From Candidatus Omnitrophota bacterium (lineage in GTDB: Bacteria > Omnitrophota > Gorgyraeia > Zapsychrales > Zapsychraceae): DNA of 64,000 nucleotides. Within the stretch, counting starts at the first letter, position 1. Each line of letters begins with the position of its first letter. Positions 12,401 through 36,400 of the stretch are shown here, in pieces. The notes below the pieces were generated by a model. It was not told the origin of the DNA. It searched no databases and saw only the letters and a program-made list of their open reading frames with translations. The translations under genes were made by a program, and so were the position numbers. The stretch is taken from the NCBI GenBank assembly GCA_021108075.1, contig JAIORP010000120.1, positions 21,557-85,556 on the forward strand. The letters run 5' to 3'.

Positions 12401-15400
12401 CTCAGGCACATGGTTGACTCGGGGTTAGTGTCTTCTGCCATATTAGATATCTTTTATGTCGTCGATACACCTCAACAAGTGTTGGATATTGTGGTTACTC
12501 ATTTTGATACTCTCGGGTGGTATGATGACCTCAACCATCTACTGAAATTTGAGGTTGATAGATCAACAGCTCTGTCCTGGCCGTACCTTTATGACGTGAG
12601 TGGAATTCTCATCAAGATGCGGTCTGTGTCCAAACAAAAAGGCTTTAAAGACATGTTGGGATATATGGAAAATTTGGTCATCAGAGACGCCGTCACACAA
12701 ACGCAAGGGAATTTGATCCAGGCCGCCCGTCTGCTGAATATGCATGATCGTTATGTCGAACGCCGTATGGAAGCGCTACGGTCAAAAGCGAAGAATAAAT
12801 TTAATACCAGATATAAATTTTCCATACGTGAGATCCGCCATTTAAATCTACTTTATGCCATGTTAGGTGTCAGGGATATCTATGCTTTGTCCCGCCGGGC
12901 AAGAAGAGAAAGCAAGACGCATTGGCAGTTCGTGCGTGACCGGACCTTTGAGAGGGTCTTACGTGCTGGCCAACTGAGTTATTCCGAGATCAACCTGTTG
13001 TATGATCGAATCCCGGGTTGGACAGAATACATGAAAAAGAAGTTAGACCTGGATGACAGAAAACATCAAAGAAAACGCAATCACAAAGGGAAGAAATCAG
13101 GTGGCACTCTGGCAGGGCGATCACGCCAGGAGGGCAACTGTTTTGAGAAAGCGCTGAAAAAGTTATCTGTAGATGTCTTGGCTTTAAAGAGGTTCTTGAG
13201 TCAAACGGATAAGGATATTTTTGATGGGTATCACATCATTTATGTCATCCCAGTACTTAAGGCCCTTCAACGCGCTTATTCCCAAGAAAATTTGGATAAA
13301 ATTTATCAGGATGTCCTGGTCTCACATCAGGCGTCTTACGGCGTTAAGGCCGACGGTCAAAGACGTGATATTTGGCATGCCATTACACGACGGGAATGGA
13401 TTCAATTATCCATCGCGGAAAAGCAAGAATATATGACCTTTGGTGAATTTACGCGCATGGCCCCATTGGCGCAGGCCTGGTTAGGCGCGGAAGTGAATCA
13501 GCATATTGTTCAAAGGGCTGAGGCGCTCGCTTTGAAACGCGATATTTATGAAGGTTGGGCACAATATGAATTCTCGCCGGAGGAAAGTCTCGTCTTGAAA
13601 AAGGCCTGGTTACGTCTAATGGATCAATCCAAACGTTACGCGCGCTGGCAACCGCTCACAAAAGGCATCATCGCGCGGTTAAAAGCGGAAAAAGCATTAG
13701 GTCAAAATATTGAGATCATAACGCCGTCGCAGGAAGAGCTCTGGACGATGATCATGCAAGTTGCCATGGAAGAAAACATACATTTCCCGTCACCTGACAA
13801 CTTGCGCATTATCACATTGGCCGGCAATAAAGCCCTGCTGGGCGTTGAAGAAGAGGCCTCTCATTATCTTCTGGTCCCTATCGATGAAATTGAAGGATTA
13901 GATCAGTTGCGCCAGCATGACCGGTATGTTTACACTCAGTGGCTTGATCACGAAGTTGCTCGTTTGATTGCCTTGCACAAAGACCGGCAACGTTCAGAAA
14001 AAGACATCACACAAGATTACCCTGTTCATTTATTCATTGATCGAATGAAGATGCTTCGGGATAAAAAAGGTGATATACGTGTTTTCGTCAATCGCCGCAT
14101 AGAACAGTTGGCTTTATTGCAAAAATTCTTTAATGGACAGGTATTAACACAAAGTGACGTTGAAGATGGTTTTAATCATATGGAGATTTACGCGCATGCC
14201 GGGTTGTTAACGCCAACGGGTATTATTAAATTACCCAACTCTCAGAAAGGTCTTAAGATTGTCGCCAAAGGCGAGCATATCGGTGAGTCCGTTTCCTTGC
14301 GCCTCTTTAATGATCCTAATCAGGGCATCATGTGTCAATGTTTGGTTTTTGTTCATGGTGCTGACGGATATGTTTATGAGAGCGCCAATCATTATTTGAG
14401 GGATAAGGTCACGCGTGAGTCCCAGCATTTGAGGACAAGCCCCAGTCGGCTTGACGGCATTGTTACCCTTAATGAGTTAGATCTGTATGCTTACTTCAGG
14501 GGTGAAAAAATATATCCCGTTAAAGACAGCGAGGAAGTTATCACGCGCAGACGAATTGTTCAAGAAGGTGAAACATTTGAACTGCCCAACAAAATTCAAC
14601 CGGCAGGCCGGATTAGGTTGATGTATTTGAAACGACAATATTTGATTAATTTATGCGGGCCAAATGAACAGACGAATAAAACTCCAGTCTTCAAATTCAC
14701 GGGCAATGATAATTTAGGGACCGTCTTGGTCAGTGGCGCTAAAGGATCGCAACCCGGTAATTATTATTATCAAGACGAAGAGGGTGAGTTGCGGCATCTA
14801 CGCGTGAAATCCAGCAGGTACAACCGTCTTATGAGTTTAGCAGAATGGCACGCCATCAGTTTCTTGCTGGGCCGCGCGGACATCAAGGCGATACCAGGGG
14901 AAAATGTTTTTACAACGTTTAGCAAAGTCAAGCCGGATGGATATATCTCCTTGCCGTATTTTGGAAAATTAATGGTTGCTGAAGGCAATTCGGAATATGC
15001 GGCGCGCGACGTGTTCGCCCAGATCGCCCTTGTCAATGATCGTTATTACGGAACAATGCTCAGATGCTGCGTTGAGGGTGTGATCAGCAATTATTATTAC
15101 AAGGACTCGATGACAGGTCATCTGAGACATTTCCGTGTTGAGACATTAGGGCGTTATATCAAATTACGAACAGATCAATTGTGTGAGTTTGATATTTATC
15201 AGTATTTGAGGGGAAAGTCCTTTCATCACATTCCTGTCCGCCCGGATGAAAGCGACAACCGGATGACATCGATTATTTCACGGCAAGTTGTTAAGAATGG
15301 ATATTTCAAGTTTTTTGATATTCAGCCGGTTTATGTGGGAACTGTCTACAATGATCAGCATTTTAAACTATCATTCCAGCGGAATGAAAAGGGCCAAGTC

Positions 15401-18400
15401 GTTGTGGGCTATGGATTGCCGCATACCGATTTTCTGGGTTATATCGATCAAGAACTGAACCATCATCCGTATTTAATTTGTCCGTTATCAGAACACCGCA
15501 AAGCCCTGCTTCATTTGATAAAGAATCTTCCGTTGGAAGAAAGGACGTTCCTCATTAGAGAAGTGGAGAAATATCGTATTTATGATGAGAAAGATCAGAA
15601 CTTCTACCCTATTCTTGATATCGCGTTGACCAATGGCTACGCGCATTATTACGACCTTGATATGATGGGCGGACATGATCTTGATATTGCTCCAACAGAC
15701 GTGTTCTCGAGAATAGAAGGCACGTATCAAATGACAAATGGAAGTGTGGCCAGGAAGTTCCTGAAATATATAGAACGGGGTGAAAATAAAACATTAAGAG
15801 AACGATTTTATGCGCGTTTAAAACGCGTCTTAATGACGAGCTTATTAGATGTGATTTTAAAGAATTTATCCAACGGTTCAGTCGTTGATAAAATGGCCTT
15901 ATTGCGGATCTACCATCAGCTCATCGACGAATGGATGCGGCGCAACGATGTTCGTGGTCAAAAACTAGAAGTTGCGATCCTGAAAATGCAGCATCCATAT
16001 TTCTCTGTGACCGAGATAGCGCAGGTCTTTAATTTTTCAGAAGAGGAGATTGAAAAGAAAATAAAATTAGCAAACCGGCAAATTTGGTACACATCCCGCA
16101 AGCTGGGCCGTTGGGATCAACTGCTTCCTCTATTGCTTCAAGACGGTTCATTGGTCATGACAGCTATCAGCGGTCAGGTCTTAGAACTGAGCAGAAGTTT
16201 ATCCATTTTTGTCAAAGAGCTTTCTATCCAAGGCCTGCATCAATTGCCGCCGGAACAACGTGAAAGGATTATCGCCGATAAACTGCTGAATAATAAAAAT
16301 TATGAGGATCTTGATGGAGATATTTATTCAGCAGATGATTACCGTGAATTCTTTGAAGGTAAAATTGAAGCCAAACAACGCGGGGCACTGATGGTTTTCT
16401 TCGAATGGTTCAAAAGTATTCTGACAGAAGGTTTCATGCAGAAATTAGACTCAGGGTTTAACCGTTTATCCGGGTCAGCCCAGGAGTATTACCGTGAACA
16501 TGGGGAACGCTTAAAGAGTATAGAACAGCGTTATGGATTAACACTCCCTGTCGCGCGGGAGCACTTAAGCGATATTATCCGTCGATATGAACAAAGACGC
16601 AATGCGTCTGATGTCGTTGAAGACGATGTCTTCAGACGCGACAGTGCGGCCGCGGTTAAGACTAAGGGTCCGAATATCGGTTATTACGGAAACATGCAGG
16701 GTGTTGATCAATGTCAAATCAATAGGATCGCCGATAATCCCAGATTCGTAAAAACAGTCGAGCAGCATTTAAATCTTATCCCATTTTACCGGGAGGGTGA
16801 CGTTCCTGTTCAGGTCAAGGTGTTCAAGAAGCAGCCGGACAACACACCGCCGGAAGGATTTATCTGGGCCCGGTTTGAAATGGTCGAAGACCGAAAGACC
16901 CTGGTTATTTGTTTTTCGTCTGAAAACCTCCTGAAAATATTCCTTCGAGAGTTTAGTCTTTTTGAACGTACTCCGGCATACAGTGTTATTGCTCTGCATG
17001 AGTTGATCGAATTCCAGGACGGTCATACAATTGCGGATCGGACGGCACGAAAAAGTTATCCGCGATACGATAAACGCATTAAGTCACTGTTTAAGAAAGA
17101 ACCGTTCATCACCAGCGCTAACAAAGGTCATCGTTCGATGGCAGGGAAGCAGTTGCTAGAGCTTGATATCCACGCGCGGATCCATGAAGATTTCTTGGCC
17201 GCAGACCGGGATCAAAATCAAGGAGGGGCTGAAAGAAAAGTTTCTTGGTATTATGAAAAAGGGCCCCATTATCTAAAAGGATCAAGATTACCGCCACAGA
17301 AAGATTTAATTCGGTTAGGCGTACTGCTTGAGAAAGAATTGAGCGATGTTAAAGACCTTTTACAGCGGGTACAGGAATCTGTCACCGTGTTCGGTGGAAA
17401 TATTTCTGATGAAGAGTGGCAGAAGTTTGGGTATTTATTTGGCCAGAAGTTATTTGAAGTCCAGCTTGTTCCTCTGACAGGGGGCGGACCTGGAATGATG
17501 ATGATTATTTTGAAGGGGTATATCGACGCGCGTGGAACAAATCTCTATTGGTTCTTGAAACGGTTATTATCCCGTGCCGTTCTTGCGTTCCTTCCGCATA
17601 TGCCGAAGTTCCTAATGAAATGGATAAGCTCAGGTTTGACGCAAGGGTTTAAACTCTATATAAAAGGTCAGGACCTCAACCGGTATGTTGAAGTGTACCG
17701 TTATTTCACTCATTTTATCCCGCGTAAGGCGTCTTTGATCCGCAATTCGATTGTTGTTGTTTTATATGGTGGTTTTGGTACCACGGATGAGATGTTTGAG
17801 GTCTTACGAACCGGACGAAAGTTTATTTTAGCAGATTTCTGGCGTCCGATTATCAACCGCTACCGCCATGTCTTGGCACAAAAGAATTGGGTGGAAGAGC
17901 GCTTGGAAAACATCAGATATATTCCGGATATAGAAAAAGATATCGACGGGGCTATTCAGACAGCTATTAATTGGGTGAAAGAAGATATCAAGAATCCTGT
18001 TGAAAAGAAAGAAGAACTCAAGTCAACGGTCGCCGCTTTAGACGGCACGATTCATGAGCTTAAGAGTGTCATGCCCATCCTGCAGCAATGGGATCCCGCC
18101 TTGGTCGTCATGGGCAGCAGCCGGTTAGACCCCTACCGGCGCAAAGATCAACGCGACTTGTCTATTGCCAGATACACCGGGCGAATGGCGGCACGGCATG
18201 ATCTGCCGATACGTGTTGTCGGTAAAGGTTCGATCGCCAATGCGGTTATTCAGGGTATCGATGATGAAATTAAAGACAGGGATAAACGCGAACAATATAA
18301 ACAACGACGGTTGCAGGGCATATTTTCCTCAGAAGAAGTAAATATCATTCATATCCAGCAACATTTTAATAGCCGCCATGTCATCTCGACCCAAGATCCT

Positions 18401-21400
18401 TATATCCAGAAATTGGTATTGACTGAAAATGTGATGGGCTTTGTTGTTTTACCCGGGCGATTGGGAACACTTGATATCATCAGTGATGATGCCGTTGTTC
18501 AGCAGGTTTATTATTTGGAAAATAAAGAAATGATGTTTAAGCCGATCGTCTTTGTCAACCGCTCATTCTGGAAAACGTTCTGGAGTTTTTGGTTAACACG
18601 GGTGCAGCCGTATATTATGCCGGGAGCGGAAAAGATTTTCTATTATGTTGATACAAAGCGGGAAATCTATCAGGTATTAGAAGAGATCGTTGAAGCCTAT
18701 CGAGGTGCCCGGCGTATTAAGGGTTGGGATTATGACGCCCCGTCTCAGGAAGAAAAGAAGAGCATGACTTCGGATGACCATATTTTGATTTGGCCCGTTA
18801 ACGATTGGCGGGGAGATGAACAAAAATCAACGCTGTCCCACGACCTCCGCGTCAAAGCCGGACAACAGGCGGCGGCAGGCAAGAGACCGGCTGTCAGCCT
18901 TGATAACTCGATGGCAAATTTTAATGCCTTAGAAAAATACCGTTATATTAATTTTTATCATTTTTATTCTGAAATTATTATTCAAATGGGCCAGGGACTT
19001 CTGCGGCTGGGTGTGGACCGTCAACTTATTCATAAAATCTTCTTAGACCGGGCTCCGCATCAATTTGGGCAAGATGTTGGACAAGCGGCTAAATCGGTTA
19101 ATAGTGTCCTGATGGAAACGGCAGAGTATATTTTACACGCCCAGGAGTTGTTATCCGATATCAACATTAAAGATAAATGTGCGCAGGAAAGAATTGTTAG
19201 CGATTTGGTGATTAAGTCCATTGTTCAGCAGGGTGGTCAATTTAAGTTTGATATTGAATGGTTTAAGACACAGATGCATTTGGCCGTATCAGCTGGCATG
19301 TTTAGACAATTGATTGTTCAGGAGATTTTCTTCCAACGACAAAATAAAACGATCCAGGTGATACCAGAGGAAGCCTGGAATAAGATCGCCTTCGCGGTCC
19401 AGAAATTGTTAGAAGAACACAGAGAGGTAAACGGAATTGATACCATTGAGAATATGTGGGCATTATTTGTTTTAGATCTTGAACTTCAGAGGGAAATACG
19501 CATGGATAATAAGATCAGACTCCTTTTAAAGAATATTTTCAGACGTTATTCAAGGCCGTCGAAAGACATGGGCATGGGCGCACATGGCAATATTTATGAA
19601 AACGATGTTCCATTGCTCGAACAGCTCATCCGTGAAGAGAAATATCATGCGATCATGGAATTTGACGGTGTCGTTGAAGTGAAAGGCGTGCGGATTAAAT
19701 GGCGGGAATTAAAAGAATATATCAACGGTGAAAAGAAAGAGTTCATCTACGCCCGTTGGGCTGATCCAACAAAACAGACACTGGAAATTTACTTCTCATC
19801 ACATTCAGCTGTTAAGATTTTTGATAAGTTTATCGCGCATTCATTTGTCCCAGGATACATGCACGGACATTCATTAGAACAGCGGTTACAATTATTGGCT
19901 TTACATGAGATTTTGGAAAAGCGCTTTATCGCGGATGGGTATGCGCCGTGGGTAGCCCATATTCTGGCGGAGGAACGCATTGTCCAGCAACGCGATATCC
20001 GCGTTCATCATAATTATCAAGAGCATGTCTCTGAACGCGGGCATCATTTAGCGTCGGCACTACTTTTAAACGATAAATGTCAAGGACAAGATTTGGTCGG
20101 CCATGAAAACCGACGGAAGCAATTTATTCAAGCTGTTCATGGTGGTCCCTATACAATTTTTCCGTATTATGATGATCAGGAGCAGATGGTCCTGTTTACA
20201 TTTTTCTCCGGGGGGATTTTGTTGCCGGGAAAAATTAAGTCTCAGTCGAAAGAAAAAGACTTTGAGCCATTCCGGACCATAAAAGGCGATAAGGGTACAG
20301 GGTTTGGCATGATTATCAGTAAAAGGATTATTGAAAAACATGGCGGCGCTATTTCTGTTCAAAGCAAATTTGGTGAGGGCACAACAATGTTTGTGAAATT
20401 GCCGATAAGGGCAACTGAGCCTAGGCTGGAAGTTGTAACTGTTAATAATCCTGACGGTGCATTTACCGGGATGAGTACAAAAAATTCGGATGCGAAATTG
20501 GCGGAGCACAAGGAGGATGAAGGGATTAAGATGAAGGTTACGGAGTTTAAAGAGAATGAAACAGCGAGGACATGGGTGAGCGAGAAAAGAAAAGAAGCTT
20601 CAGCCACAGCGCCGCTTTTGCCGGATAATATTGAGACGGTTGTCGTAGAGAACCGGGAAGTGAGTTACGGGTTAAAATATGTTGAAAGAGATGACGACGG
20701 TAAAGCGAGGGTGTATGTAGAACGCCCGTGGCTGGATCGGGTGGATAAATTGCGGAAGATGTATGGAGACAAGTTGGCTGAGCCTATCCTTATTTGCGCT
20801 TTTGTCCATGAATTTACAGGGAAGAGCCATGAGAATAATGTAAGGGCAGAGGGTGTTTATCTGGAGGAATATTTTGCGGACAAAGATTTTAGCAATTTTA
20901 TACCGGCTATTATTAATAGTTTAGAAAATTTGCGAGAACAAGAGATCCTGGAGCCGATAAGTAAAAAGCCTAATATTGTTCAGGACAGTACGGTTTCAGG
21001 CCTGGAGAGTAAGGTTCCGGCGGATTCTGGAGATGTTTCAGGCTCGCCGGAGAGAACGTATAAGTTGCGCGGCAAAGATGGGCTGCTTGCATGGACAGGA
21101 ATAATAACGCAGAGCATAAAACAGAAAGCTGGACAAAAGGATTCATCGGATGGATTTTATAGGGGATTTACAACAGAGCAGGTAGAGGTATTATCCACAC
21201 AGGGGTGTTATTTTGTTGTCTTAAAAAATAGCCCCGCGCATAAGCGGTTAAAGGATTTGTTCAGGAACAGGTATAGTGAGGAGGAGAGAGGGAGAAATGA
21301 GGTGATTATTACAGTGCCGGGGGCTCTTGTGGTTTTCTCGTTACATATCGGGATGCCGAGGGAAGATTTACAGCGAATGTTTCAGGAGAAATGCCGAATA

Positions 21401-24400
21401 GAACGGACGCTTTCAGGGCATGTAGATTTATTAGCAGAATTTTTTAGCACGCCGGAGAGGCGGCGTATTTATAAAGAATTCCTGGGAGAAAGTCATTATG
21501 AAGACCCTGACAATCCGGGGACAGGTATAAAAGAAGAAATTGCTTTAAGAAAATTAATAACAGGGATTATTACAGAAATAAAATTTTCTGAAGCGGTTGT
21601 TTCAGGGAAGGATACTCTTAACGGAAACGCGAGAAGGATTCCGCAGAGTTTTATCAAAGATCTGATGCAATTTTTAATAGAAAATTTTTCAGGAAAAGAT
21701 ATTGTTTCAGAGTCGACAGCGGATCAAATTAAAGGAATATATGAACGTCATGAAATTATCAGTGAGAACGGGACAAAGAAGAGATATCGCGTATTAAGAA
21801 AAAATGTTCCGCAGGTTAGAACAATGTGGGGTGTTGTTGTGTCAGATAAAGATATTTCCCCCTGGGAAACTGTTGATATTGAAGTGAATTTTGAGATTGG
21901 GAGGGATTTAAACAAGGAAGAAATAGAGCGTCTTTTAAGAAGCAGGACAATAGATGTGAGGGTAAAGGTGAAGAGTTACCGGGATGCAAACGGAGATAGA
22001 CACAATACAGAAAAAGAGGAATCTTCAACGCTGAATTACGCGGTAAGGTATGAGGATATCGAAGTAATAGAGATGTTTTATGACGAAGGGGCGACTATGT
22101 GGCGTGGCGCAGTTGAGGAATACAATAATCAACGCGCGCGGAAGGTTCGTTTTAGAATGAAGGTGCGTTTCGCCCCTGTTCCGGGTACGTACACTGTGGA
22201 GGTGTATGTAATACAAAAACAGGGAATAGTCATTGTGGATGATATAGAGGAATACAGGAAAGGGATTGTTAACATAGCGGAGCCCGGGATGTTCACAGAA
22301 GAATTTTTTAGAAAGAGGTTTCCATCGAATTATAGAAAATACATCGGGACACCTGAAAAACAAAAATGGGAGTATAAAAAAGAATTAGTGAAAGAAGTAA
22401 TCCTCTCGTTGTTTGGCAGATATATTAAAGAATGTACAGAAGCAAGGAATAGATACAGAAGATGCAACGCGCTCGCGAAATTAATATATCTGCAAAAGAA
22501 ATATAATACGGCAACAGAGTTATTAGATGGCATTGTTACCCATGAGGATCAGAGGGTGAGGCTTGCAATCGCGGAGGATATGGAATGGTTGCCTGCTAAT
22601 GACGCGTTGGTATATCTTAAGAGGCTCATCAAAGACAAAGATAAGAACGTGAGGGAAGTTGCCCTTGATATAGAGGAGGACATTAGTGATGAAAGGAGTA
22701 ATTTTTATTTCTGGCACTGGATGAGAAATTATTTCATGCCGATGGGCGGGTTTTTAAACAGGACAATAAAGAAAATCAGTAAACAATGTATAGTTGAGGT
22801 TAATGAATTTATAAAACGGAGATTAAAGGATAGCAACCTTGATTTGGAGATGGATACTAAGGAGATATTTACAGAAAGATCAGTAAAGGAATCCTCAGAA
22901 GTTATTCTTAATAAGATAAAGCTTATTTTAGCCGAAGCACAGAGGGGGATTACAGATAAAGATGAGATTGAGCACATGGAGAATATCTGTTTTAAACTGG
23001 AAGGATTTATAAAAGTTTTGGATTCTTTCAATAAAGTGGAAGACCTGATAAGAATAGGAAAAAGGAGGGACGAGAGTATAGAACAGGCATTAACAGAAAA
23101 GGCAGAGTTAATTAAACAGGAGTTTTCTTGTATGGAAAGATTCATGAAGATGTTGCGGCAGGAAGGCGCGATTGTAGCAACATATTTGGAAATTATTAAA
23201 GAAAAACATATTATTATAACAGGAATGATCGATTCGATATTAAACCTTGGCAAAAAACAGGCAGTGCGTACAGAGACGATAAAAGATATTGTTATTAGTT
23301 TACAGTATGTGGAGAATTTAATGAAATTGGAAAGGTTAAAGAAGGCTAAGAAATTAGAGGCGTCGGGAGAATCAGAAAAGGCAGAAAAGTTAAAGAAAAC
23401 CAGCCTTAAGATAACATTTAGCTTTGGTAAAGGCGTGAACCTTAATACGGCAGTAAAGGTAGAAAAGACATTTGTAAGGCTTCTTGGTGAAATGGTTAAG
23501 AATTCAGAAGAGCATGGAGGAGAAAAGGTAACTATTACTTTTGTCCCTAACAAAGACAAGGTTACGATTCTTTATATAGACGATGGAGAAGGACTGGATG
23601 TTAATACAGGAGCAGAGAATATCTTCCTGCCATTATTTAGCGCAAAGGCCAAGATTATTTTAGACAAAGAAAAATGTGATCCAAAAAAGGAAAAATTAAA
23701 TGCAGATATTGTAAACAAAGTATACCTTTTGAGAAAGGGTGTTGAAATCATTGGCGGGCAGGTGGATATTGTCGAGCCAAATGGAAAAGGTTTTCAGTTA
23801 AGGATTACCGGTTTGCCGATTGAGTATGATCCGGAAAGATTTTATGACATCGGCGATATGTATGAATACCTGAAGAAAGAATTTGAAACGGCATTATCGC
23901 GGTTAGAGGATGTTGATGAAGATTTACTGGATACAGGGGATGTTCAGCATCTTGGAATGTTATTAATTCATTCCCTTGAAGAATATCGTGATGCTGTTAT
24001 TAAGGGAAGAATGAGATTTATTTTATCAAGCGCGGAAGAAGTAAAAAAGCAGTTAAACATATTGTCCGAAGAATTAGTAACTCTCCAGCATTCGGATAGT
24101 TACCTGGATGACCCTGATGTCAGGGGTCAAATAGATCCGGTTTTAATAACATTTGATAGGATTTTACGTCAGATAAAGTTAACGTCATTATCGTTAAGCC
24201 ATTCAATGAAAGATGTCTCAATAGGAGAATTTATGCAGAATATGATCAACCGGTTTAACGATGAAGTACAGGATGTAAATGTTAATCTTGAAATAGATGA
24301 GAGGATATTGAATGAGACGATTTTTACATTTTATGACCATCTTGAGGCAGGACTGACGAAACTGCTCTGGTATGCTGCTGCCTTTGAGAAGCCCGAAGGC

Positions 24401-27400
24401 TGTGAGATACAGATGAATGTGCGGCTGAATAAAGAGATGGCGGGGATAGCAAAGGCAGAGCAGGATGCTGAAATGCCGGTTATTTTTGTAGGGGGGCTTG
24501 GAGGTTCCAAACGAAATGAGGCAATACGGTTACTGTCGGGATTAGGGATATTCCTTGAGGTAGAGGTATTTGTAAAAGGCATGAGCCTTCCTGGGGAGAT
24601 AGTCAAAAAGGTAAGAGATGCACGCTGTCCGATGATAGACGCGAAGCATATTGAACATACATGGTTTGGCCTCTGGTGTCTGGATAATCAGTTAAAGGGT
24701 GTAGGGGGGCATTTACAGGTTGTATCCGAAGATTCCGGAACAAAATTTGTATTGTATGTGCCTGTTAATACCACGCCGGAGCTTGTTAAGAAAAAAGAAC
24801 TGGAGGGAGGGCGTTCCATTAATATGGGATTTTTCTCAAAGGTGCTTGCGTATTTTTGCCGGCAGGAAGGGATAGATTCTGATGACAACGATGCCCTTGT
24901 TAAATTATTGCGGGAACTTTATGTGGAAGGATTAAATAAATTTAGAGAAGAACCACTGCCTTTCTGGCGAGAATCCAGTACAGAGCCACAAAAAATTTCC
25001 GGTGAAAATATAAGAGATCAAATTAAAGATGCGATGATGGCTCTGGAAGATTATAAATTGATGGAGAAAATCACAAAGAACCCTGCTGTTCAAAAAGAAT
25101 ATCAACGGATAAATCAGGAAGTAATAAAATATAATAAAGCATTGGGATTTAAAAATGTTGTTTTAAAAGTTAGGGATTTGAGAAATACAGGGCAGCAGGA
25201 CAGGCATGGCCTGGAGGTATATGTTCGCCTTGACGGCAGTTTGCAGATACGTTCAGCCTGGCTGGGACGGCATCCTTCGGCTGTTGGAGAGCAGGATTAT
25301 GCAACAGGTGTAAAGAAAAATGGTATTGCAGTCGACGATGAAGTAAACCGGAAAGAAATTATAAGCATCGACACAGATAAACTTAATCCTCTCGCAATAT
25401 ATTTGACAATACAAACGGAACTTGTCAGAAGAGGATTTTTTTGCCGCAATGAATTTGTAGAGGCTTTGGGTAAGTTTAAAGAGAACGGATTTATTCATGA
25501 AGGGTTGTATCGAAGGTTGCTGCATGTGGTTAGAGGGAAGGTGGAAAAGGTTGAACAGGGTAGGCAGGAGGAAGATCAGTTAATTTCGGATTATTCAAAA
25601 ATCGACCCTGCCATTAATTGGGTAAATCCTGAAGGTGTGCCGGAAGGATTGGAGGGGGCAGAGGAAGGGGCATATTCAGGAGATACTTTTGATACGAGGT
25701 TGAGTGGCGAGGAGATAAGAAACGGTAGCTTTTATTTGAGGGGAGCGCTCGGGGCAGCGTTTGCAAGGGCAGTGGCGCAAAGGGCATTGGCGCAGGCAGG
25801 GGATGGAGCTGTGGAAGAAGTGGAAGGAAAGATAAGGAACAAATTTGTCGGCTATATTATTAAGAAAAATAATAAAGGTGAATTAGTAAGCATTCTCACC
25901 GCCTACCACAGAAACAGCGATACAATCCTCATCAGCAAAGCACTCCCAGCAATAATTGAAGCACTTAATAAACATCCTGAAATAGGGCGTAAAAATGGAA
26001 AACTCGGCGCGGGAGATATCCTCGCACAGGATCTTTGTGACCACGAATTGTGGCATAGAGGGGAAGGCAGGTCAGGAGCTAAAGCAGAAAATGAAAGAGA
26101 GGCAATAGATATCCTTCGCCTCCATGTTCTGGCAAGAGAGAACGGTATCGACATTAACACCTTTGCAGATGTCCTGGTTGAGATGAACGTTATTACGCCG
26201 GAGTTTGCAGGATTGTTGAAGAAGCCGGATGTAACTAAAGGGGTGCCGGAAGGATTGGAGGGGGCAGAGGAAGGGGCATATTCAGGAGATACTTTTGATA
26301 CGAGGTTGAGTGGCGAGGAGATAAGAAACGGTAGCTTTTATTTGAGGGGAGCGCTCGGGGCAGCGTTTGCAAGGGCAGTGGCGCAAAGGGCATTGGCGCA
26401 GGCAGGGGATGGAGCTGTGGAAGAAGTGGAAGGAAAGATAAGGAACAAATTTGTCGGCTATATTATTAAGAAAAATAATAAAGGTGAATTAGTAAGCATT
26501 CTCACCGCCTACCACAGAAACAGCGATACAATCCTTATCAGCAAAGCACTCCCAGCAATAATTGAAGCACTTAATAAACATTCTGAAATAGGGCGTAAAA
26601 ATGGAAAACTCGGCGCGGGAGATATCCTCGCACGGGGTCTTTGTGAACGCGAATTGTGGCATAGAGGGGAAGGCATGTCAGGAGCTAAAGCAGAAAATGA
26701 AGTGGTAGAACGGAAAGGGCAAATAATAACAAGTCTGAAGATAAAAGGTAAGAGGCGACCTGTTAAATATAGATTGTACTGGAGAAAAGGCAAATTAATC
26801 TGTTCATCATTGGAAGATATTTCTCCTGAAAAAGCAAGAGAATTGGGGGTAGATAAGGTTAGTCAATTTAAAACTGATGTTAATGGGGTATTATGTGTTT
26901 TAGAAGAAAAAATATTTTTAACAAAGAAGTACAAAAACAGGGAAGGGTATGCGGAGGTTAATGAGGCTGGTGTAGTTTCGAAAATAATATTAATGAAAAC
27001 AAAAAGAGATAAGGAGGTAGAGATTGGGGTAGAACGGGAAGGGGAAATTATAACGGGTTGGAAGATAAAAGGTGAGAAGCATTCTGTTAAATATAGATTG
27101 TACTGGAGGAGGGGTAAATTTATTTGTTCATCATTGAAAGGTTTTTCTTTTAAAAAAGTAAGAAAATTGGGGGTAGATAAGGTTAGTCAGTTGAAAGTGA
27201 ATGCTTTGGGGGTATTGACCGTGCTTGGTGAGGGTATACCGATAGGGACTTGTTATGCAGAAAGAGAGGGTTTTGCTTTGATAGACGGTTCGGGAGTACG
27301 GGAGATAACATTGATTGCAACAAGGCGGGAGCCGGAAGAGAAAATAAAAATCAAAAGAGAGGGTAGAGTTATTAAAAAATTTGAATTTTATTTTCAGGGA

Positions 27401-30400
27401 ACTGAAAGTGTAAGAGAAGTTGCATATATTTCTTTAAGGCGGGAAGATGGGCACCTGATATCATATTCTTCCTTATGTGATCCTTATTTTATAAGTAGGA
27501 AAATTAAGAGAAATAAATTCAGCGGTATAGTAGAGGGCATGGAGGTGACTAAATTCGGGTGGGTAAGCATTGGGATAGATAACTTTTTTATTCCGCAGAC
27601 ACGCGGCTGGGCTGTAGATATTAAGTATGATAACGGAGAGGCAGTAAAACTTTATCTGATTAATCCTGAAAGTGGAGAAAGATTAGAAAAAGATGCGGAA
27701 GAGGTAAAGGTAGAAACAAGTGACGAGTGGACAGAAGAAAGAAAAGCAATGTTTAAGAGAAAAAAGGGTATTATTCTTGATAGGGCTAAAAGATATTGTA
27801 ATTATGCAGGTATATATGGAATAAATTTCCATGAGCTTGTTTCAGAAGGAGAAAAAGCATTAATGGGAGCAATATTGCGTAACTATAAACCTGGAGAAAT
27901 TAGATATGAATATGCAGTTCTTTGTATAAATGGAGGGATGTTAAACCTGATTGATAATGAGAGAAAAGCAAGAAATATCAGAAAGCAGGACAGCAGGAGG
28001 ATAGCCTGGTTATACAAAACAATGCAAGAGCTGGAAAAGGAATTAAATAGAGAACCTGAGGCTCAGGAGATATGTGAGGCGATGGATATAAGTATGGAAG
28101 AGTTATTTGAGATACAGAAAATTCGGGGAAGGTTAGCCACCTCTAGTATGGATTTTCCGACCGGAGGGAGAGGGGAAGAATACAGGTCAATGCATGAAGT
28201 AATAGGCGATAAGGCAATGTTAGCAGATGAGATAATGGAGGCGTCAGAACGGGAGGCAGCCATTAGAGATGCAATGAGTAGGCTGTCGGAAGAAGAAAGG
28301 GAATATATCAGGATGCTTTTTGGATTTAATGAAGAGATATATTCAGCGGAAGAAATTGCTCGGTTAGAGGGAATTACCTTGGAGAAATTTAATGTCATTA
28401 AATTCGAAATATTTGCGAAAATGGGAGAATATGTAAAGGAGTATAGTTCGCATGGATCGAGGATTAAAGGAAGAATTGAGCAAGATTCAAAAATCGACCC
28501 TGCTATCAATTGGATGGCTCCTAAAGGTGTGCCGGAAGGATTGGAGGGGGCAGATGAAGGGGCATATTCAGGAGATACTTTTGATACGAGGTTGAGTGGC
28601 GAGGAGATAAGAAACGGTAGCTTTTATTGGAGGGATTTGTCAGCGGGAGCGCTCGGGGCGGCGCTTGCAAGGGCATTGGCACAGGAAGGGGATGGAGATG
28701 TAGAAGCAGGGGAAGGAAAGACAAGGTACAAATTTGTCGGCTATATTATTAAGAGAAATGATGAAGGTGAATTAGTAAGCATTTTCACCGCCTACCACAG
28801 AAACAGCGATACAATCCTCATCAGCAAAGCACTCCCATCAATAATTGAAGCATTTAATAAACATCCTGAAATAGGGCGTAAAAATGGAAAATTCGGCGCG
28901 GGAGATATTCTCGCAGAGGCTCTGTTTAAACATGAACTGTCGCATAGAGGGGAAGGCAGGTCAGGATCAGATGTGGAAAAGGAACAAGACGCAAAAGATA
29001 TCCATTGCCACCGTGATTTGGCAAGAGAGAACAGTATTGACATTAATACCCTCGCGGATGTCCTGGTTGAGATGAATGTTATTACGGTGGCATTTGCAGG
29101 GTTGTTGAAGAAGCCGGACATGATTCCGCAGTCAGAGGTGAAAGGAGACAGGGAAGAAATTGTTTTGGAACAAAGTGGATGGGCCTGCGCGGCCTGTGGA
29201 AAATCTGTCGATGGTTTGATCCAGCGATGGGAAGAGACCATTATTGAAAGGAATGACCTGCAGGCGCTCAAAGCCCGGGTGAAGACATCAAGAACTGTTT
29301 ATGAGACGACATTAGACCATACGGGTGTTGATGCGCGTTATCTACGCGTTGGATCATTTATTTTAATCGATCGATCTGTAGATCAAGCGCAAGCGTGGCA
29401 GGCGGTATTACCCCATAACGTCATTTTAATCGAACGACCATTGGAGTATGACACATACATTGTCTCTATGATCGCCGCGCTGTTGGATCTGGCACAGGAA
29501 AATATTTTGAATAATGCTGTTGTGGAAATCCACGGTGTTGATACCGGATTGATGGTTTATGTGGCCTTGCGTTTGGGAGCAAAGCGCGTGGTTGGGATTG
29601 ACCGTGGAGAAGAAGCCATTCAACAAACGGCACAGTTGCTGAGTGACCATCATTACCGGGGGGCTGTTTTAACTGAAGAAGACTGGTTCACTTATGCGAG
29701 CGAACAGGATGAGGATTATGTCCTGGTTCAAGGGGAGTTAAAGAATTGGTATGCGGTATCGTATCAGCAACGTCAAAATTTACGCGGTCAAAAGGAGTAT
29801 ATCCGTCTCAATGATACGGGGCCGCATTATTCCATTCATCAAGACGCGATGCGAGACATGTTAAGAGACCCCGACGCTGTTGCCATCGTGCTTGGTAATT
29901 ATATTAATTCATCGCCTTTGGCCCGATCGCAAACCCCCGGCGGTTTAAAATCCTTAGGGGATGAAGTCGATATTTCAGCCCTGCAGGCCATCGGTTGGAC
30001 AGTGGAACAAATTGCTTATCCGACAAAATATAAAGATTTTGTGACGCTTGTTGCTCAAAGGGAGCGGAACGCGTCAAAGAAAAAATTGGCCGATCACCCG
30101 GTCGAAAATCTTGGCCGACAGTCCGGGGATCCCGGGTTTCTCACCGGCCGGCCAGTAACCGTACAGTCCATTCCACAACCGCGTAAAGTTTTTGTCGGAG
30201 GAGGTGAGCGCGTCAATCAAGAGGATTTCGTTCCTGTTATCACAGACAGCATCAAGCAAGTCGCGCAAACACAATTAACCCGGTTATTAGATCGATATCA
30301 TTTTGATTCCAATGCCGTCTTTTACCGTTTCCATCAGGGAACAGATCCAGCGCAAACGCTTGAACAGGAACGCCAACAGCTGATCGATGCTCAGGGTGGA

Positions 30401-33400
30401 ACATGTTTGGGTTTATCCTCTATGTTACAAGAGAACATGTTGACGGCATTATTTCGACCGGACTTTGCCAGTGACTTATCGCGCCGTCTGGGATCAAGGG
30501 TTGATACGCATATTTTAGAACATGATGACCGTCAATACCGTTTCGTCATTACTGTCGATGGCAAAAATTTTGTCATTCATGGGTATTTAATCGGCGCGTT
30601 AGCGATTGATCAATTCAATCACCGTTCCAGATCCCGCGTGTCTGCCCGGGAGAGTGAATATTATCGTTACCTGCATTATGCTAATATACTGAAAATTTAT
30701 AGTGAGCAGGAGTCGGTTGCCGCGTTTGTCAGCGATCCGGGCTTTGGTGTTCATTATCTCCTTCCATTAAATGAATCCGTTATGGGGTTACGCGCTCAAG
30801 TCAGGGTCCGGCCGTTAGCGCGCGATGAATGGCCTGTCTATCAATATGATAACCGTGAACTGGCGTGGTTCAACCGTCCGGCTTACCGGGTTTTTGGTGA
30901 AAGCATTCAGAATAAGTTGTTGATTTTAGAAGGGGTGTCCGCGCGCCCAATGGTCTTTGTTGATCAACTGTCTGAATCTGTTTACCGACGACGTTTTTAT
31001 CAAGGGTATCTCGCGATCAGCTTAAATAATATTCAGAGGATTATGCGTTTTGAAGCGAAGACGGGCAGAGTCAAGGTATTGGCCGAAGTATCCTTTGGCT
31101 CCGAACGAAGTCCGCGGTTGACGTTTAAGCTAAGATATTACAACGCGCAAGGAAAACGAATGAAAGTGGTCTTAAATGAAAAACAATTGCGCTTAGCGCT
31201 TGAAAACATGCGTACTTATCGAGAAGGGCGGGATCAAACAGTTTTGCCGAGACACAGCGCGATGGCGCTCGAAGCCGGAGAACTATTGGGACAAACACGA
31301 CAAGAGTGGGAAGACCGTATTGCCGTTATTTTAGATCAATTCGCATACCGTAAGGAAAAGACATTCAGGACTCAATCCGGCCTGTCTGAGAGCACTGTGC
31401 CGGAAGGCGCGTGGGATGTGGATCAGCGCACATATGTCACAGAAGATGACCGTGTTTACGATAAATTTGATTATCAGGATCTGGTCGAGCAGGGTTATAC
31501 CGTCTATAGGAATCATCAGGTCGAACTGGTATTCTTATTACGTAAAGACGCGTCGGTCGTCTTGATCGATGTCATTGCCGTGACAGATCGTCAAGCCATG
31601 GAATACATGGGATGGATCCATGCGAGCTTCCGGTCGCCGTTAATGCTTGACCGGTCCTTACATGATGTTGATTTACGTTTCACTTTGGCCACGGTTGAAT
31701 TCTTATCCGGACTGGACGCGAATATACTGGACGAGATTTATCACATGCCGCGGCAACAAGTGGCCTTGTTTGTCGATCTGTCCTATCAGAATGTTAAGAA
31801 ATACGCGCAATTTTATAATATTGATAAAATATTGATGAGTTCGGTCTTGAACCTCGCGCAGCACTCGGGATTTGAACGCTTCACCGTCAATCCGGCCCAA
31901 AATAAATACGACTATTACCGCGAACGTTTTCACGCAGAGTCCTCCGGTCATTTTACCCGGAACATGCTGGATATGGTGTATTACCTGGCGATTGACATTA
32001 CCGAACAGATCGATATGCCATATATTCTTTTTGATCGTGATCATTTGAACCGGCTCCGATATTTGCTTGTTGAACGCAGCCATCCAGCGCTTGATACTGT
32101 TGTCCGTGTCATTATTCGCGAACGCGCGACAGGACGTTATTTGGTGTTGCAAAAATTAGCGGCCTCAGTCGCTCCGGGCTGCTGGGAAACTCCTGGTGGA
32201 AACGTCGATACATACGAGACATGGCGACAAGCGGCCTTAAGGGAAACAGAAGAAGAGACCGGTTTTGATATTGATTGGGTCGAGGCATTGAATCCAGGGC
32301 AACCGGTGATTTGCTGTTTTGACCGGTTTGTCCGCAGAATTTATGGTTTTTATACGGAGATGGATCGCGTGCACGAACCGTCTATTAATAATAAGTTCAA
32401 AGAAGATGGAACATGTGAAGATAAGCATGCCGCAGCCAGTTGGAAGACGGAGAAAGAAATAAGAATACTTATGGACATGAACCCATCTGAACAGGCCTCC
32501 ATGCTGAAGACCAGCCGGGTTGTTTTTGATTTGCTGTTGTCCGATGGCGTTATCGACATGGAACGGGTGTCAAGAATCGTTCATTGTGTTCGTGATTTAC
32601 CGCGAAATTGCGCTTATAAGAATGTCTCCACGAAAGAAAAATCTGATTTATTAACACATCTCCTGATTCAGATCCACCGGAAGCAAATAGATGAGGTTGT
32701 CGAGCGGCAATGGGATGACGACGGAAACATTCAAAATTATTACATCAAGGCCGGAGCATTAAAGACTGCTCTGCAATCTAAATTGTATGTTCAACCCGTT
32801 AAGGATAACTATTGGCATGTGGTCACAGATAAAGCCCAGTTTTATCGTGGGCCGGAAGGAACGGATAACCCTTGGACGATTCAAGACCTTGATGATGACG
32901 ATTACGTTGGAGCACGCAAACGTAAAAGACGTTCCAGACACGATAAAGAATCCGTTGTTAAATTAGAGATGGAGAAAAAAGCACAGCCGGATCATCAGAT
33001 TGAATACATTCAAGAACGCCGGATCATCAGCCGTAAGTTTATCACCCGCTCCATCAAAGAATTGGATATGTATTGGCAGATGTTTGATGTGATTTATCCG
33101 GCGATAGCCATTTATGGTTCAGCTCGAATCCCATCTGCTGTGGGCAGAGACCTGGCCAAACGTTTTTCAACATTAGGCTACGCGATCACAACCGGTGGAG
33201 GACCGGGTTGTATGGAGTCAGTCAACCAGGGCGCGTTAGAAGGCCTTCGACGGTTATCTGTTGGTTTAGGCCTGAAATTGCCGTATGAAGATAAATTAAA
33301 TGACTATGTTAACATCCCATTTGAATTTCAATACCTTTTCACGCGGTTATTAGCCTTCCTCACATTTAATCGCGCCCATCTGCATGTCAAAGGCGGGCTG

Positions 33401-36400
33401 GGCACATTAAATGAATTCTTTACCGTGACAGCGGCCAAAGAGATCGGTTTTATCTCGGGAGATACACCAATCGTCCTGATCGATAAATGGATGTGGGGTG
33501 TTTTTGATCAATTGATTCGGCAATGGGATGATCGCGGCTTTAGCTCTTACCGTGCGCAGGATATGTATCAACTATACGGCGCAAAACAAAGATCTCAAAT
33601 TGTCCATGATGTCCATCAGACCGCGAAGCATATGCAACGCCAGAACGTGTTATGTATTAACACCGAACTGATTTTTAGGGAATTGAATAATATTAACCGG
33701 CGGCTGAAGGGGCTTGGACCGACAGTCGGTATTATCGGTGATGACCGCAGTATACGCGAAGGAGAGTATGACTTCGGCGTCGCTGAAAGATTGGCGTCAG
33801 TTTTGGCAAAAGAAGGTCTTTCTATCCTGCGCACCAGTGAACGGGGGATCGGCGACGCTGTGCATCGGGGATTTGTCGATGCCCGCCGTGTTGCGCGGCA
33901 GGCTCCGTACAGAGTCAAAGAGCGTTTGATCGGTACAGCCCATGACATCAACGGAAATGGGAATGGTACAGCCCATACATTAAAACTATCATATGACTTT
34001 TTAAAGAAGATCGTGCTGAGCAGTCCATACACGGATGCCTTGATTGTCTTCCCGGGCGGTTATCACGTGATGGATGTTTTGATGGAAGAAGCGTGCTTGA
34101 TCAAGACCCACAAGATCGCTCCCCGGCCGATAATCCTCATGAACAGCAGGTATTGGACCCCATGGCGTGAAGATTTTCTGCGGGCTAAAATGGTCGCTGC
34201 CAAAACAGCCAATCATAAGGAAATCAATTATTTACATATCGCGGATACGCCGGAACAGGTCAAAAAAATTCTGATGCCGCATTTGTATCAGCAAGGTTGG
34301 TATGGTGAACAGGCCAAGACCTCAAAGTCCAGGGCGATCGTCTCTAACATCGGCAAGGTTTCTTCGAAGAGAAAGCAGCGTAATAAAAGCAAGAAGAATC
34401 AAAATGGCGATAAGAACGATCATTCGATCCGTCCGGTTGTCCAACTTCTTATCGGTCTATTGTTATTCTGGTGGCCGAAAGTGGGTAAAGGTTTTAGGCG
34501 TGTTGGTACTGAAACGTTCAGGGCGCGGAACGACTATTTATTAACATCAGCAACTTATCGCGGCCCACCATGGGTGAAGGTTATCGCGGCCTTTGTCCGA
34601 GCTTGGCTTTTACCGGTTGCCCGGGGCGTTGATGCGGACGGTCAGGTGCGCTGGTATGTGCCGCGATCGTACCGAATTTTAAATCTGTCCTATCAGACTC
34701 AATATTCGATTGACCGGCATGAAAGACAATATTCCGCACGTCCTATCCTCGGACTCTTTTTAGGGGAATTTAAAGGCCTTCGGGCCCAGGTACAGGGATT
34801 CCTCAATAAAGAGTGGATGTTTGAATATTTAGATCGCTTAGACATCATGCAGTATACACAGAAAGATAGCTTATACGGACGAGGATTATCAGTGCCCCGT
34901 GAACACGCAACTTCTTTATTCGACCGGCTCGTTCGGTCCAAACATCTGCACGCGTCTTCGGATGTTTTAGGGCGTGAATATCAACGTGTTTTCAGCCAGT
35001 ATTCTGCCTTCTGGGCTGATCATATTCTCGCGAGCCATGCTTTGATATTATCCGGGGCAAAAAATATCCGGCGGGATTCTGTTACGGTTGTCGGTGTTGG
35101 CGCGGCAAGGGAGATTCCTTTAACGGAATTAGCGGTGCTATTTAATACAGTCAAGATTATTGATATGGATGACTCAAGTTTGAGAGATGCCTACCTATCT
35201 GTTCCGGCCCAGGCTGTTGATGAAACCGGGGTACTATTGCGGTCGAAAATTCAGATGATTCAAAGGGATATAACAGATGATCAGATGCTTCAGTTAGCGC
35301 GGGCAGGATTGAAGATTATCGAACAGAATACAGAACCTCAAAAAGCTTATTTAGAGTTGGTCAAATTGTACCGCGACACAAAATTGCAACCGGTGTCCGC
35401 AATGGATGACGATTTGGCCGCCTCCTATATTGTTTCTTCATGTGTTTCCAGCCAAATCATGTGTTATCCCGTTGATTTTATCTACCAAAAATTCTCTAAG
35501 AAATTCGGCCTAAAATGGGATGACCTGGAAGCATGGAATAATATTTTGGAAAAAGATCAGGGATCTGCGCTATTGACGGTTTACCACGACGCGTTTGAGC
35601 GACTTCAGTTGCAGGTCTTCAGCCAGCATGTCCAACTGCTGCAGTCCATCGTCCATCCAGAAGGGCATATTTACTGGTCTGATACGGTCATATCATTACC
35701 GCTGCTCCAGAGCATGAAAAAGGAAGATATGGGGCTGTTTTATGACCGGTACTTCAGGGCGATCAAACCTGATATCGCAAGGATGGATGCTGACAGCGCG
35801 GCGCAGGCAAAGTTTGAAGATCGTAAGCTTTATTACCGCCGAAAACATCCGTCATTGGGCGAAGACCGGATCGCAGCCATTGCTTATATATCATTGATGG
35901 GTGAACAGATTCTTCCATTTAAGAAAGAATATAAGGGCATCTGGACTTTGATGAAAATAGCGCCAAAGGTTTCGACATCTGCTATCGGCCACATGCTGAA
36001 TCAGGAACAACTGCAACAGCTGGAGTGTATTTTAGGAACACCTGACAGCCGCAGAGACTGGTTCTGGGTCGCGAATCCATTTAATGTTTCCCACGGAGAG
36101 TCAAACGGCGCTTTCCTTGTTCAATCCAGATTGTTTACAGCACGGGATAAAAAAGCACTTCTCTCAGACAAGGCGTCGAGTGACCGGTCCGCTCTGGTTG
36201 AGCAAGAATTCTCCATGGAAGTCGAAGACCCCGGCCTGTTTGAAGAACAGATGAGTTGTACCGCAAAGAATGGTTGGTTCTGCGCGGCGTTACCGGATAT
36301 GTCCGGAAAGGTGGCGGTCATTCGCCGGTCAGGGATCGGGAAGGCGAAAGCCTTATCGGAGATCGAACAGATTATCCGTCAGGAACAATACTTACAGTTC

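Follow-up and report, generated by a model that had tools for sequence, protein, structure and literature searches.

Introduction

Bacteria of the phylum Omnitrophota carry genes of tens to more than 100 kb, and how such genes grow and are kept up is the question addressed here, with a giant gene of Candidatus Omnitrophota bacterium (assembly GCA_021108075.1) that lies in a 64,000-nucleotide (nt) stretch of contig JAIORP010000120.1, hereafter the window, and contains an 8.8-kb compositional island. Giant multi-enzyme proteins of Omnitrophota were described by West-Roberts et al. (2023, bioRxiv 10.1101/2023.11.21.568195), and 'class 1' multi-enzyme giant proteins of the same phylum by Nielsen and Lui (2026, bioRxiv 10.64898/2026.06.07.730766), whose survey covers 5,761 Omnitrophota proteins of at least 10,000 aa and 176 complete genomes; according to both preprints, most such proteins are nearly unique in databases. 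Repeats in giant genes are described in the later survey as mostly old, and recent tandem expansion as rare (Nielsen and Lui, 2026). The two surveys describe domain architectures and repeats, not lateral block exchange or intragenic compositional structure: by term search they hold no mention of recombination or horizontal transfer, the 2026 text holds none of mosaic structure or purine bias, and the sole 'codon' in the two papers belongs to the dnaA start codon.

The gene studied here occupies nucleotides 1 to 46,675 of the forward strand as a single open reading frame (ORF) of 15,549 codons whose 5' end is cut by the window, where no stop codon precedes the first ATG (nt 26). On the source contig (ENA ERZ26872899, NODE_24, 100,871 nt) it is called as a protein of 22,742 amino acids (aa) that is open at the contig end; the true gene is thus longer than 68 kb, and the window holds its last 15,549 codons. 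Tested against the description of class 1 proteins, it lies in an Omnitrophota genome, passes the size threshold of 10,000 aa in a single ORF and contains many Pfam families. Like those proteins, it exceeds 10,000 aa, is tiled by many families with none dominating by copy number (among them HEAT_2, HATPase_c, NUDIX, Lysine_decarbox, methyltransferases and HD), and has a sequence that is near-unique in databases. It is unlike them, as a local exception to the mostly old repeats of the 2026 survey, in a pair of 606-nt repeats that are 98-99% identical.

Horizontally acquired genomic islands are recognised by atypical codon and oligonucleotide usage, as in the amelioration framework of Lawrence and Ochman. 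The island described here resembles them in its step-like change of codon and dinucleotide usage, its enrichment in codons that are rare in the host and its sharp borders, but differs from them in lying inside one reading frame and being translated with the host protein, without an integrase, a tRNA target or flanking repeats. Mosaic genes that arise by module replacement are known from the C-terminal tips of Rhs and polymorphic toxins, which differ in G+C, and from module swapping in polyketide synthases (PKS) and nonribosomal peptide synthetases (NRPS). By analogy, the island may be likened to these as a block of foreign composition that joins a very large multi-domain gene in frame where one domain ends and another begins, and that recurs in a different context. 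Unlike the toxin tips, it is internal and has neither a demarcating motif nor an immunity gene, and unlike the toxin and carrier-protein modules of these systems, its domains are of regulatory type. Some giant bacterial genes have also been described as atypical in oligonucleotide usage along their entire length (Reva and Tummler, 2008, as cited in PMC2528017); our locus shares with them the association of atypical composition and internal repeats with a giant gene, although here the atypical composition is confined to a single block of 8.8 kb that is largely non-repetitive.

A compositional island inside one continuous giant gene

The island spans positions 20,381 to 29,152 on the forward strand (2,924 codons). 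A sequence-only reading of the window had claimed a distinct segment of ~8.7 kb at 20,500-29,150 within the ORF, beginning directly after a HATPase fragment and ending in an abrupt return to CGN arginine codons at ~29.15 kb; its coordinates fall within ~120 nt of the computed boundaries, and both descriptions of the ends hold. Four segmentations agree on these boundaries, for which three independent ones set limits of 20,210-20,420 and 29,120-29,180. When arginine codons alone were divided into AGA or AGG (AGR) and CGN, a two-breakpoint likelihood fit placed the breaks at 20,324 and 29,293 with a log-likelihood ratio (LLR) of 72.9, AGR making up 144/207 (70%) of the arginine codons inside and 235/948 (25%) outside. 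Glycine GGA and GGG (GGR), together with the other four-fold purine-ending codons, gave breaks at 20.5-21.1 kb and 29.6-29.7 kb. A cumulative sum (CUSUM) of synonymous preferences only was lowest at 20,381 (its minimum) and highest at 29,152 (its maximum), rising by 386 nats over the island compared with largest excursions of 7-10 elsewhere. An unsupervised 12-letter entropic segmentation cut the ORF most strongly at 20,210 and 29,180, and the stronger of these cuts has an N*JSD (JSD, Jensen-Shannon divergence) of 280 bits versus at most 26 bits in codon-shuffled controls.

The CUSUM rise was scored on its own training data, so a held-out test is the fair measure of the discontinuity. Among held-out windows of 150 codons, all 18 inside were island-like, and 82 of the 83 outside were like the rest of the gene, here called host-like (Mann-Whitney p = 3.5e-11). 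The island is therefore uniform and continuous, and the switch takes place within one 450-nt window at each end. The break in codon usage on which the sequence-only reading had staked its claim is confirmed.

The island is purine-rich and poor in C, and prefers AGR, ATA, GTA, GCA and GGR codons. Purines make up 0.62 of the sequence inside and 0.53 outside (0.58-0.67 and 0.50-0.56, respectively, in 200-codon windows), and the GC skew moves from ~0.1 to 0.28-0.51 between 20 and 29 kb. In 200-codon windows the AGR share of arginine codons goes from ~20% to mostly 50-95%, dropping below half only at ~24.0-24.6 kb. Third-position C falls to 0.114 from 0.21-0.22 outside, while third-position A rises to 0.33 from 0.24 and third-position T is unchanged. 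Among individual codons, GCA accounts for 0.46 of its family inside and 0.13-0.20 outside, ATA for 0.40 and 0.14, GTA for 0.32 and 0.07, GTC for 0.09 and 0.33, and GGR for 0.65 and 0.45-0.49. The rarest codons of the host (AGA, AGG, ATA, GTA and GCA) are enriched in the island. The encoded protein is rich in glutamate (10.9% versus ~6% outside) and lysine (8.6% versus ~6%), and with this the purine-rich strand, the AGA/AGG and GGG/GGA usage and the K/E-rich protein noticed in the sequence-only reading are all borne out quantitatively. The dinucleotide composition differs as well: the strand-symmetric delta* of the island is 126, compared with 9-48 for host windows of the same size, and its CpG value is 0.80, compared with 1.16 for the host. 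Since this signature is strand-symmetric, the effect is not one of strand bias alone.

The part of the ORF upstream of the island, the part downstream of it and all 11 neighbouring genes have one common, host-like codon usage, which identifies that usage as native and the island as the outlier. Native composition extends over ~81% of the visible gene, and the island makes up ~13% of the >68-kb gene; it is unique within ~70 kb of contig (the window and 6 kb downstream). Amino-acid composition or protein charge alone does not explain the codon shift, because stretches of the host at 38.4-39.3 kb that are likewise K/E-rich and purine-rich keep CGN codons (AGR 3/17 and 3/18). The reading frame stays open over all 2,924 island codons, a length for which the base frequencies at the three codon positions predict ~135 stops. 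We conclude that a real and strong compositional island lies inside one continuous giant gene. Its (E+K)/(Q+H) ratio is 'thermophile-like' (4.9, against ~1.6 outside), but this is only a lead, as low-GC Clostridia loci, mostly from the gut, reach similar values.

Domains, repeats and edges of the island

The island has parts of its own, as the sequence-only reading had proposed: HEAT repeats, a GHKL ATPase, tandem repeats and a sigma-factor-like module. HEAT_2 repeats lie at 22,445-22,666 on the forward strand (Pfam E 2.4e-5, below the curated cut-off), followed at 23,462-23,806 by a near-full-length GHKL ATPase (HATPase_c, model positions 3-105 of 111; E 7.3e-7, 30.0 bits against a cut-off of 26.4). 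An orphan domain of ~200 aa with an HExxH-like motif occurs three times on the same strand. Copy 1 (25,634-26,239) is the 606-nt tandem unit and carries HELWH at 26,042-26,056; copy 2 (26,240-26,700), 98-99% identical to it in nucleotides, is truncated at its C-terminus and has the motif changed to RELWH; and copy 3 (28,526-29,119), ~91% identical to copy 1, reads HELSH. No homologue of this domain was found by HMMER among 1.84 billion representative proteins at E below ~4e-9, and an AlphaFold2 model built from the three copies was unusable (predicted local distance difference test, pLDDT, 36). A second repeat, a 324-nt unit of ~108 aa, forms two tandem copies at 26,704-27,351 (forward strand; 81% identity in DNA and 53% in protein), and the sigma-70-like module (regions 2 to 4), to which we return below, lies at 27,689-28,435 on the forward strand. 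The 606-nt and 324-nt repeats together cover ~2.4 of the 8.8 kb. At E < 1e-4 the island has no paralogue elsewhere in the ORF, though several pairs of paralogues occur within the host parts. PADLOC defence models matched nothing meaningful.

Only two long antisense ORFs occur within the giant gene, and both lie inside the island or across its edge, at 22,729-23,559 (276 aa) and 28,792-29,271 on the reverse strand. They are most likely by-products of composition and not genes, because a purine-rich sense strand leaves few stop codons in antisense.

Both edges of the island coincide with domain boundaries. The 5' junction zone (20,210-20,420, forward strand) runs from the entropic cut to just beyond the CUSUM minimum, and the edge itself is the end of the C-terminal half of a host-side HATPase_c domain (20,243-20,407) whose synonymous codons are still host-like. 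A junction within the HATPase domain, at the entropic cut of 20,210, was considered and rejected, as the half-domain keeps host-like synonymous codons up to ~20,381. The 3' junction zone (29,120-29,180, forward strand) contains both the CUSUM maximum and the entropic cut. Here the switch takes place 33 nt past the last residue of HExxH-like copy 3 (LLKKPD, ending at 29,119) and is followed by a CxxC motif in host dialect and then by a weak, sub-threshold methyltransferase match (29,576-29,722).

A relative of the island in a second Omnitrophica genome

An HMMER search with the product of nt 26,153-29,293 against the same 1.84 billion representative proteins returned one close match (P0001), the remaining matches being ordinary sigma factors at 24-32% identity. 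This protein, KAR31_07585, is partial and encoded on a contig of 1,580 nt (locus L005) from a second Omnitrophica metagenome-assembled genome (MAG), GCA_023137395.1; it aligns to nt 27,152-28,495 of the forward strand with 62% aa and 79% nt identity. The DNA of L005 shares the island's signature (purine 0.63, third-position C 0.12, AGR 29/37, ATA 20/39), and its distance in relative synonymous codon usage (RSCU) is 0.68 to the island, where sampling noise is 0.62+-0.10, and 1.25 to the host.

The two modules differ by 0.33 substitutions per synonymous site (dS) and 0.23 per nonsynonymous site (dN). Of the conserved residues, 83% are encoded by the same codon in both, compared with the 43% that usage alone would give. 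This combination of dS and shared codons indicates that the common dialect stems from fairly recent common ancestry and not from convergence. The dN/dS of 0.70 suggests weak constraint on the protein beyond keeping the frame open. Past the sigma module the two sequences part: here it is followed by HExxH-like copy 3, and in L005 by 77 residues that match nothing in the giant protein, so that the module stands in a different context. These 77 codons are host-like by LLR, with a C content of 0.20 and a purine content of 0.54 (p ~0.003-0.004).

Further relatives were sought widely. No relative was found for the downstream flank in GTDB representative genomes, for the module alignment and the island middle in JGI metagenomes, or for the module, the island middle, its 5' part and the HExxH-like repeat in IMG/VR. 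A tblastn search with the whole island against phages and plasmids returned only ordinary sigma factors (24-29% identity). In a word-indexed search of 5.8 billion proteins, P0001 was found by a 448-aa sub-query, and the 5' junction region (19,781-22,780) had no match; a 3,790-aa query covering the island and its flanks also had none, but is unreliable, since P0001 escaped it despite 62% identity. The index seems not to contain the giant protein itself. A second candidate relative (P0002, locus L087; ENA ERZ1742237), with 29% identity to the stretch just upstream of the sigma module, was set aside as uninformative, lying on an 834-nt contig of 1.6x coverage. Both ends of that contig carry the common 'ERRVGKECRSRWSPYH / TLFPYTTLFRS' repeat artefact. 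A search of the literature by accession found no mention of these sequences.

Origin of the island

Our preferred account, which we regard as probable, is that the gene acquired, in frame and at the boundaries of domains, a block of foreign composition, part of which was later duplicated in tandem. The block would have been shaped under mutational and codon regimes unlike those of the host, in another genome or a mobile gene pool and most likely in the giant gene of another lineage, and would have entered by in-frame recombination at two inter-domain linkers, one after the host HATPase half-domain and the other before the CxxC motif and the weak methyltransferase-like stretch. Its arrival would have been recent, the block not yet having drifted toward host codon usage, and tandem duplication of the 606-nt and 324-nt units would have come afterwards. 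To the host protein it would add parts of regulatory type, namely a HEAT scaffold, a GHKL ATPase, a degenerate sigma-like module that may bind RNA polymerase and the orphan HExxH-like domain. The sequence-only reading had offered in-frame foreign DNA or a recently expanded cassette as explanations. Foreign DNA is the best-supported of the readings, given the codon usage, the dinucleotides, the absence of a paralogue, the edges at domain boundaries and L005, though no donor, no orthologue lacking the island and no hallmark of a mobile element accompany it; expansion applies locally, to the two duplicated units.

Several observations weigh against acquisition. No donor lineage was found among 80 sampled loci from diverse bacteria, none of which matches the usage of the island as well as L005 does; the nearest of them (L008) lies at a distance of 0.80, and it illustrates that regimes high in AGR, ATA, GTA and GCA occur in ordinary genomes (GC 0.41, AGR 0.64, ATA 0.33). 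Searches of GTDB representatives, JGI metagenomes and protein databases yielded no orthologue of the giant gene, whether carrying the island or lacking it. No direct or inverted repeats flank the island, the junction regions sharing only chance-level 10-mers, and no mobility gene or recombinase domain was found by Pfam within what is one continuous ORF. L005 would be a second, independent case of an in-frame switch of composition where homology ends, but this rests on 77 codons only. It could also be a vertically inherited orthologue, in which case the island would be older than we assume.

Readings of the block as a transposon, or as an insertion marked by a target-site duplication, were rejected, given the lack of flanking repeats and of a recombinase match. 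An intein was likewise rejected: there is no Hint, intein or LAGLIDADG match at Pfam E up to 1, the junction residues do not fit, and 2,924 aa is far above the size of any intein.

We hold it to be unlikely that the block is native and owes its composition to selection or to a local mutational regime, for which mRNA purine loading, a need to avoid C-rich sites of Rho loading or a deliberate slowing of translation at codons rare in the host would be possible drivers. The signature is indeed strongly strand-asymmetric (GC skew 0.28-0.51, purine 0.62), as such drivers would have it, yet the strand-symmetric dinucleotides differ too, and a third-position shift from C to A with T unchanged is not the pattern of cytosine deamination. 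That the L005 module has the same signature, seemingly lost where homology ends, would also suit a regime tied to the module, but at a dS of 0.33 and with 83% identical codons recent ancestry explains the shared signature without selection. A native block would need no donor, and none was found; on the other hand, K/E-rich and purine-rich stretches of the host keep host codons, and this reading gives no reason why only 13% of a >68-kb gene should be affected or why the edges should be step-like and stand at domain ends.

That the island is a chimera of metagenome assembly, a piece of another organism's giant gene spliced in at two points, appears very improbable, even though the assembly is a short-read, SPAdes-style one at ~17x coverage and the near-identical repeats of the island do break other assemblies. 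Frame and orientation are preserved at the two joins, for which the chance is ~1/18 (1/9 for frame at both, times 1/2 for orientation). The repeats lie wholly inside the island and not at the junctions, whose regions share no repeat longer than 10 nt, and an exact long k-mer common to genomes of such different codon usage is presumably unlikely. Moreover, a Logan contig from a different, conservative assembler (25,271 nt, with a 5,937-aa partial gene call) crosses the 3' junction unbroken and, by arithmetic from gene and contig sizes, stops only inside HExxH-like copy 3, at ~nt 28,862. The flanking region occurs in several records (the NCBI MAG contig of 100,940 nt, the ENA contig of 100,871 nt and a sister sample), and the independent MAG with L005 shows the same kind of in-frame switch. 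Least probable of all, we think, is that a purine-rich repeat cassette recently expanded within the gene, then diverged, and in this way gave rise to the whole island. The graded similarity of its repeats (606-nt units at 98-99%, third copy at 91%, 324-nt unit at 81%) and the location of every repeat of island composition inside the island are what such growth would leave. However, the repeats make up only ~2.4 of 8.8 kb, so that expansion cannot account for the whole; the other ~6 kb has no internal similarity at E < 1e-4 and holds unrelated domains (HEAT, GHKL and sigma-70), and expansion by itself creates no codon dialect unlike that of the genome.

If the block was acquired as we favour, the locus suggests that giant genes grow by in-frame uptake of whole multi-domain blocks. 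A sharply bounded, un-ameliorated block offers a testable two-step model, in which foreign multi-domain acquisition at linkers is followed by local duplication, and an intragenic scan of codon usage could be applied to the thousands of published giant genes to learn how widespread this way of growing is. In practical terms, it is at islands with near-identical internal repeats that giant genes break, or may be put together wrongly, in short-read assemblies. A bolder proposal, to which we give little credence at present, is that the island belongs to a family of self-contained multi-domain 'module cassettes', each family member having a composition of its own, that pass in frame from one giant gene to another across Omnitrophota lineages; as a variant of this idea, the block might derive from the prey or the host of these episymbiotic bacteria. 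If the proposal were true, it would amount to a block-scale analogue of exon shuffling, in which giant genes would owe their assembly and their continuing variability mostly to the lateral exchange of blocks, instead of slow duplication from within.

The sigma-70-like module

The sigma-like module aligns to residues 120-357 of Bacillus subtilis SigA (E 1e-13). In 600-aa scans Sigma70_r3 scores above the Pfam cut-off (26.4-27.4 versus 25.3) and Sigma70_r4 below it. The core-binding region 2.2 is retained (ELVSEGEKAL), but in regions 2.3-2.4 the motif YATWWIRQ reads YAVLCING, and in region 4.2 RERIRQ reads LEKFNV. With the residues that recognise the -10 and -35 elements replaced in this way, recognition of promoters is improbable. 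The module is not free-standing but forms part of a polypeptide that measures at least 22,742 aa. Judged from these motifs, it probably does not recognise promoters, and may bind RNA polymerase without doing so.

The remainder of the giant gene and its neighbourhood

Along the giant ORF as a whole, Pfam matches comprise Bac_transf, HD_5, HD_4, HEAT_2, HATPase_c, Sigma70_r3 and Sigma70_r4, NUDIX, AAA_11 and AAA_12, with at least six Lysine_decarbox/SLOG (LOG) matches, a superfamily 1 (SF1) helicase domain and methyltransferase matches that are weak and sub-threshold.

Assignment of the host follows from neighbouring genes: the MutS of the window and a 462-aa neighbour bear the NCBI name Candidatus Omnitrophica/Omnitrophota bacterium and the locus-tag prefix K8S27. 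Among GTDB species representatives, the two best matches to MutS are from an Omnitrophota genome, MAG246 (L007, 62%), and from one labelled uncultured Planctomycetales (L006, 61%); all others reach at most 46%. L007, the nearest relative by MutS, is also the nearest to the host in codon usage. Both loci were considered as possible sites of an orthologous giant gene beside MutS-MutL. At L006 the 3' end of a large ORF of at least 2,721 aa (14,384-22,549, reverse strand) adjoins MutL, but its sequence is unrelated to the giant gene, and this candidate was rejected.

Outside the island, the gene has internal duplications in host dialect. A 107-aa pair (3,719-4,039 and 5,819-6,139) is 77% identical, and a block of ~330-370 aa is duplicated 22 kb apart (11,426-12,529 and 33,209-34,309) at 48% identity, overlapping a Lysine_decarbox (LOG) match. 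The C-terminal ~2.3 kb of the gene (44,300-46,675) consists of diverged repeats with 40-58% aa identity. Its composition is intermediate, AGR making up ~40-60% of arginine codons, with an entropic cut at 44,591, and it contains, at 45,026, the sole window outside the island with a slightly positive island score.

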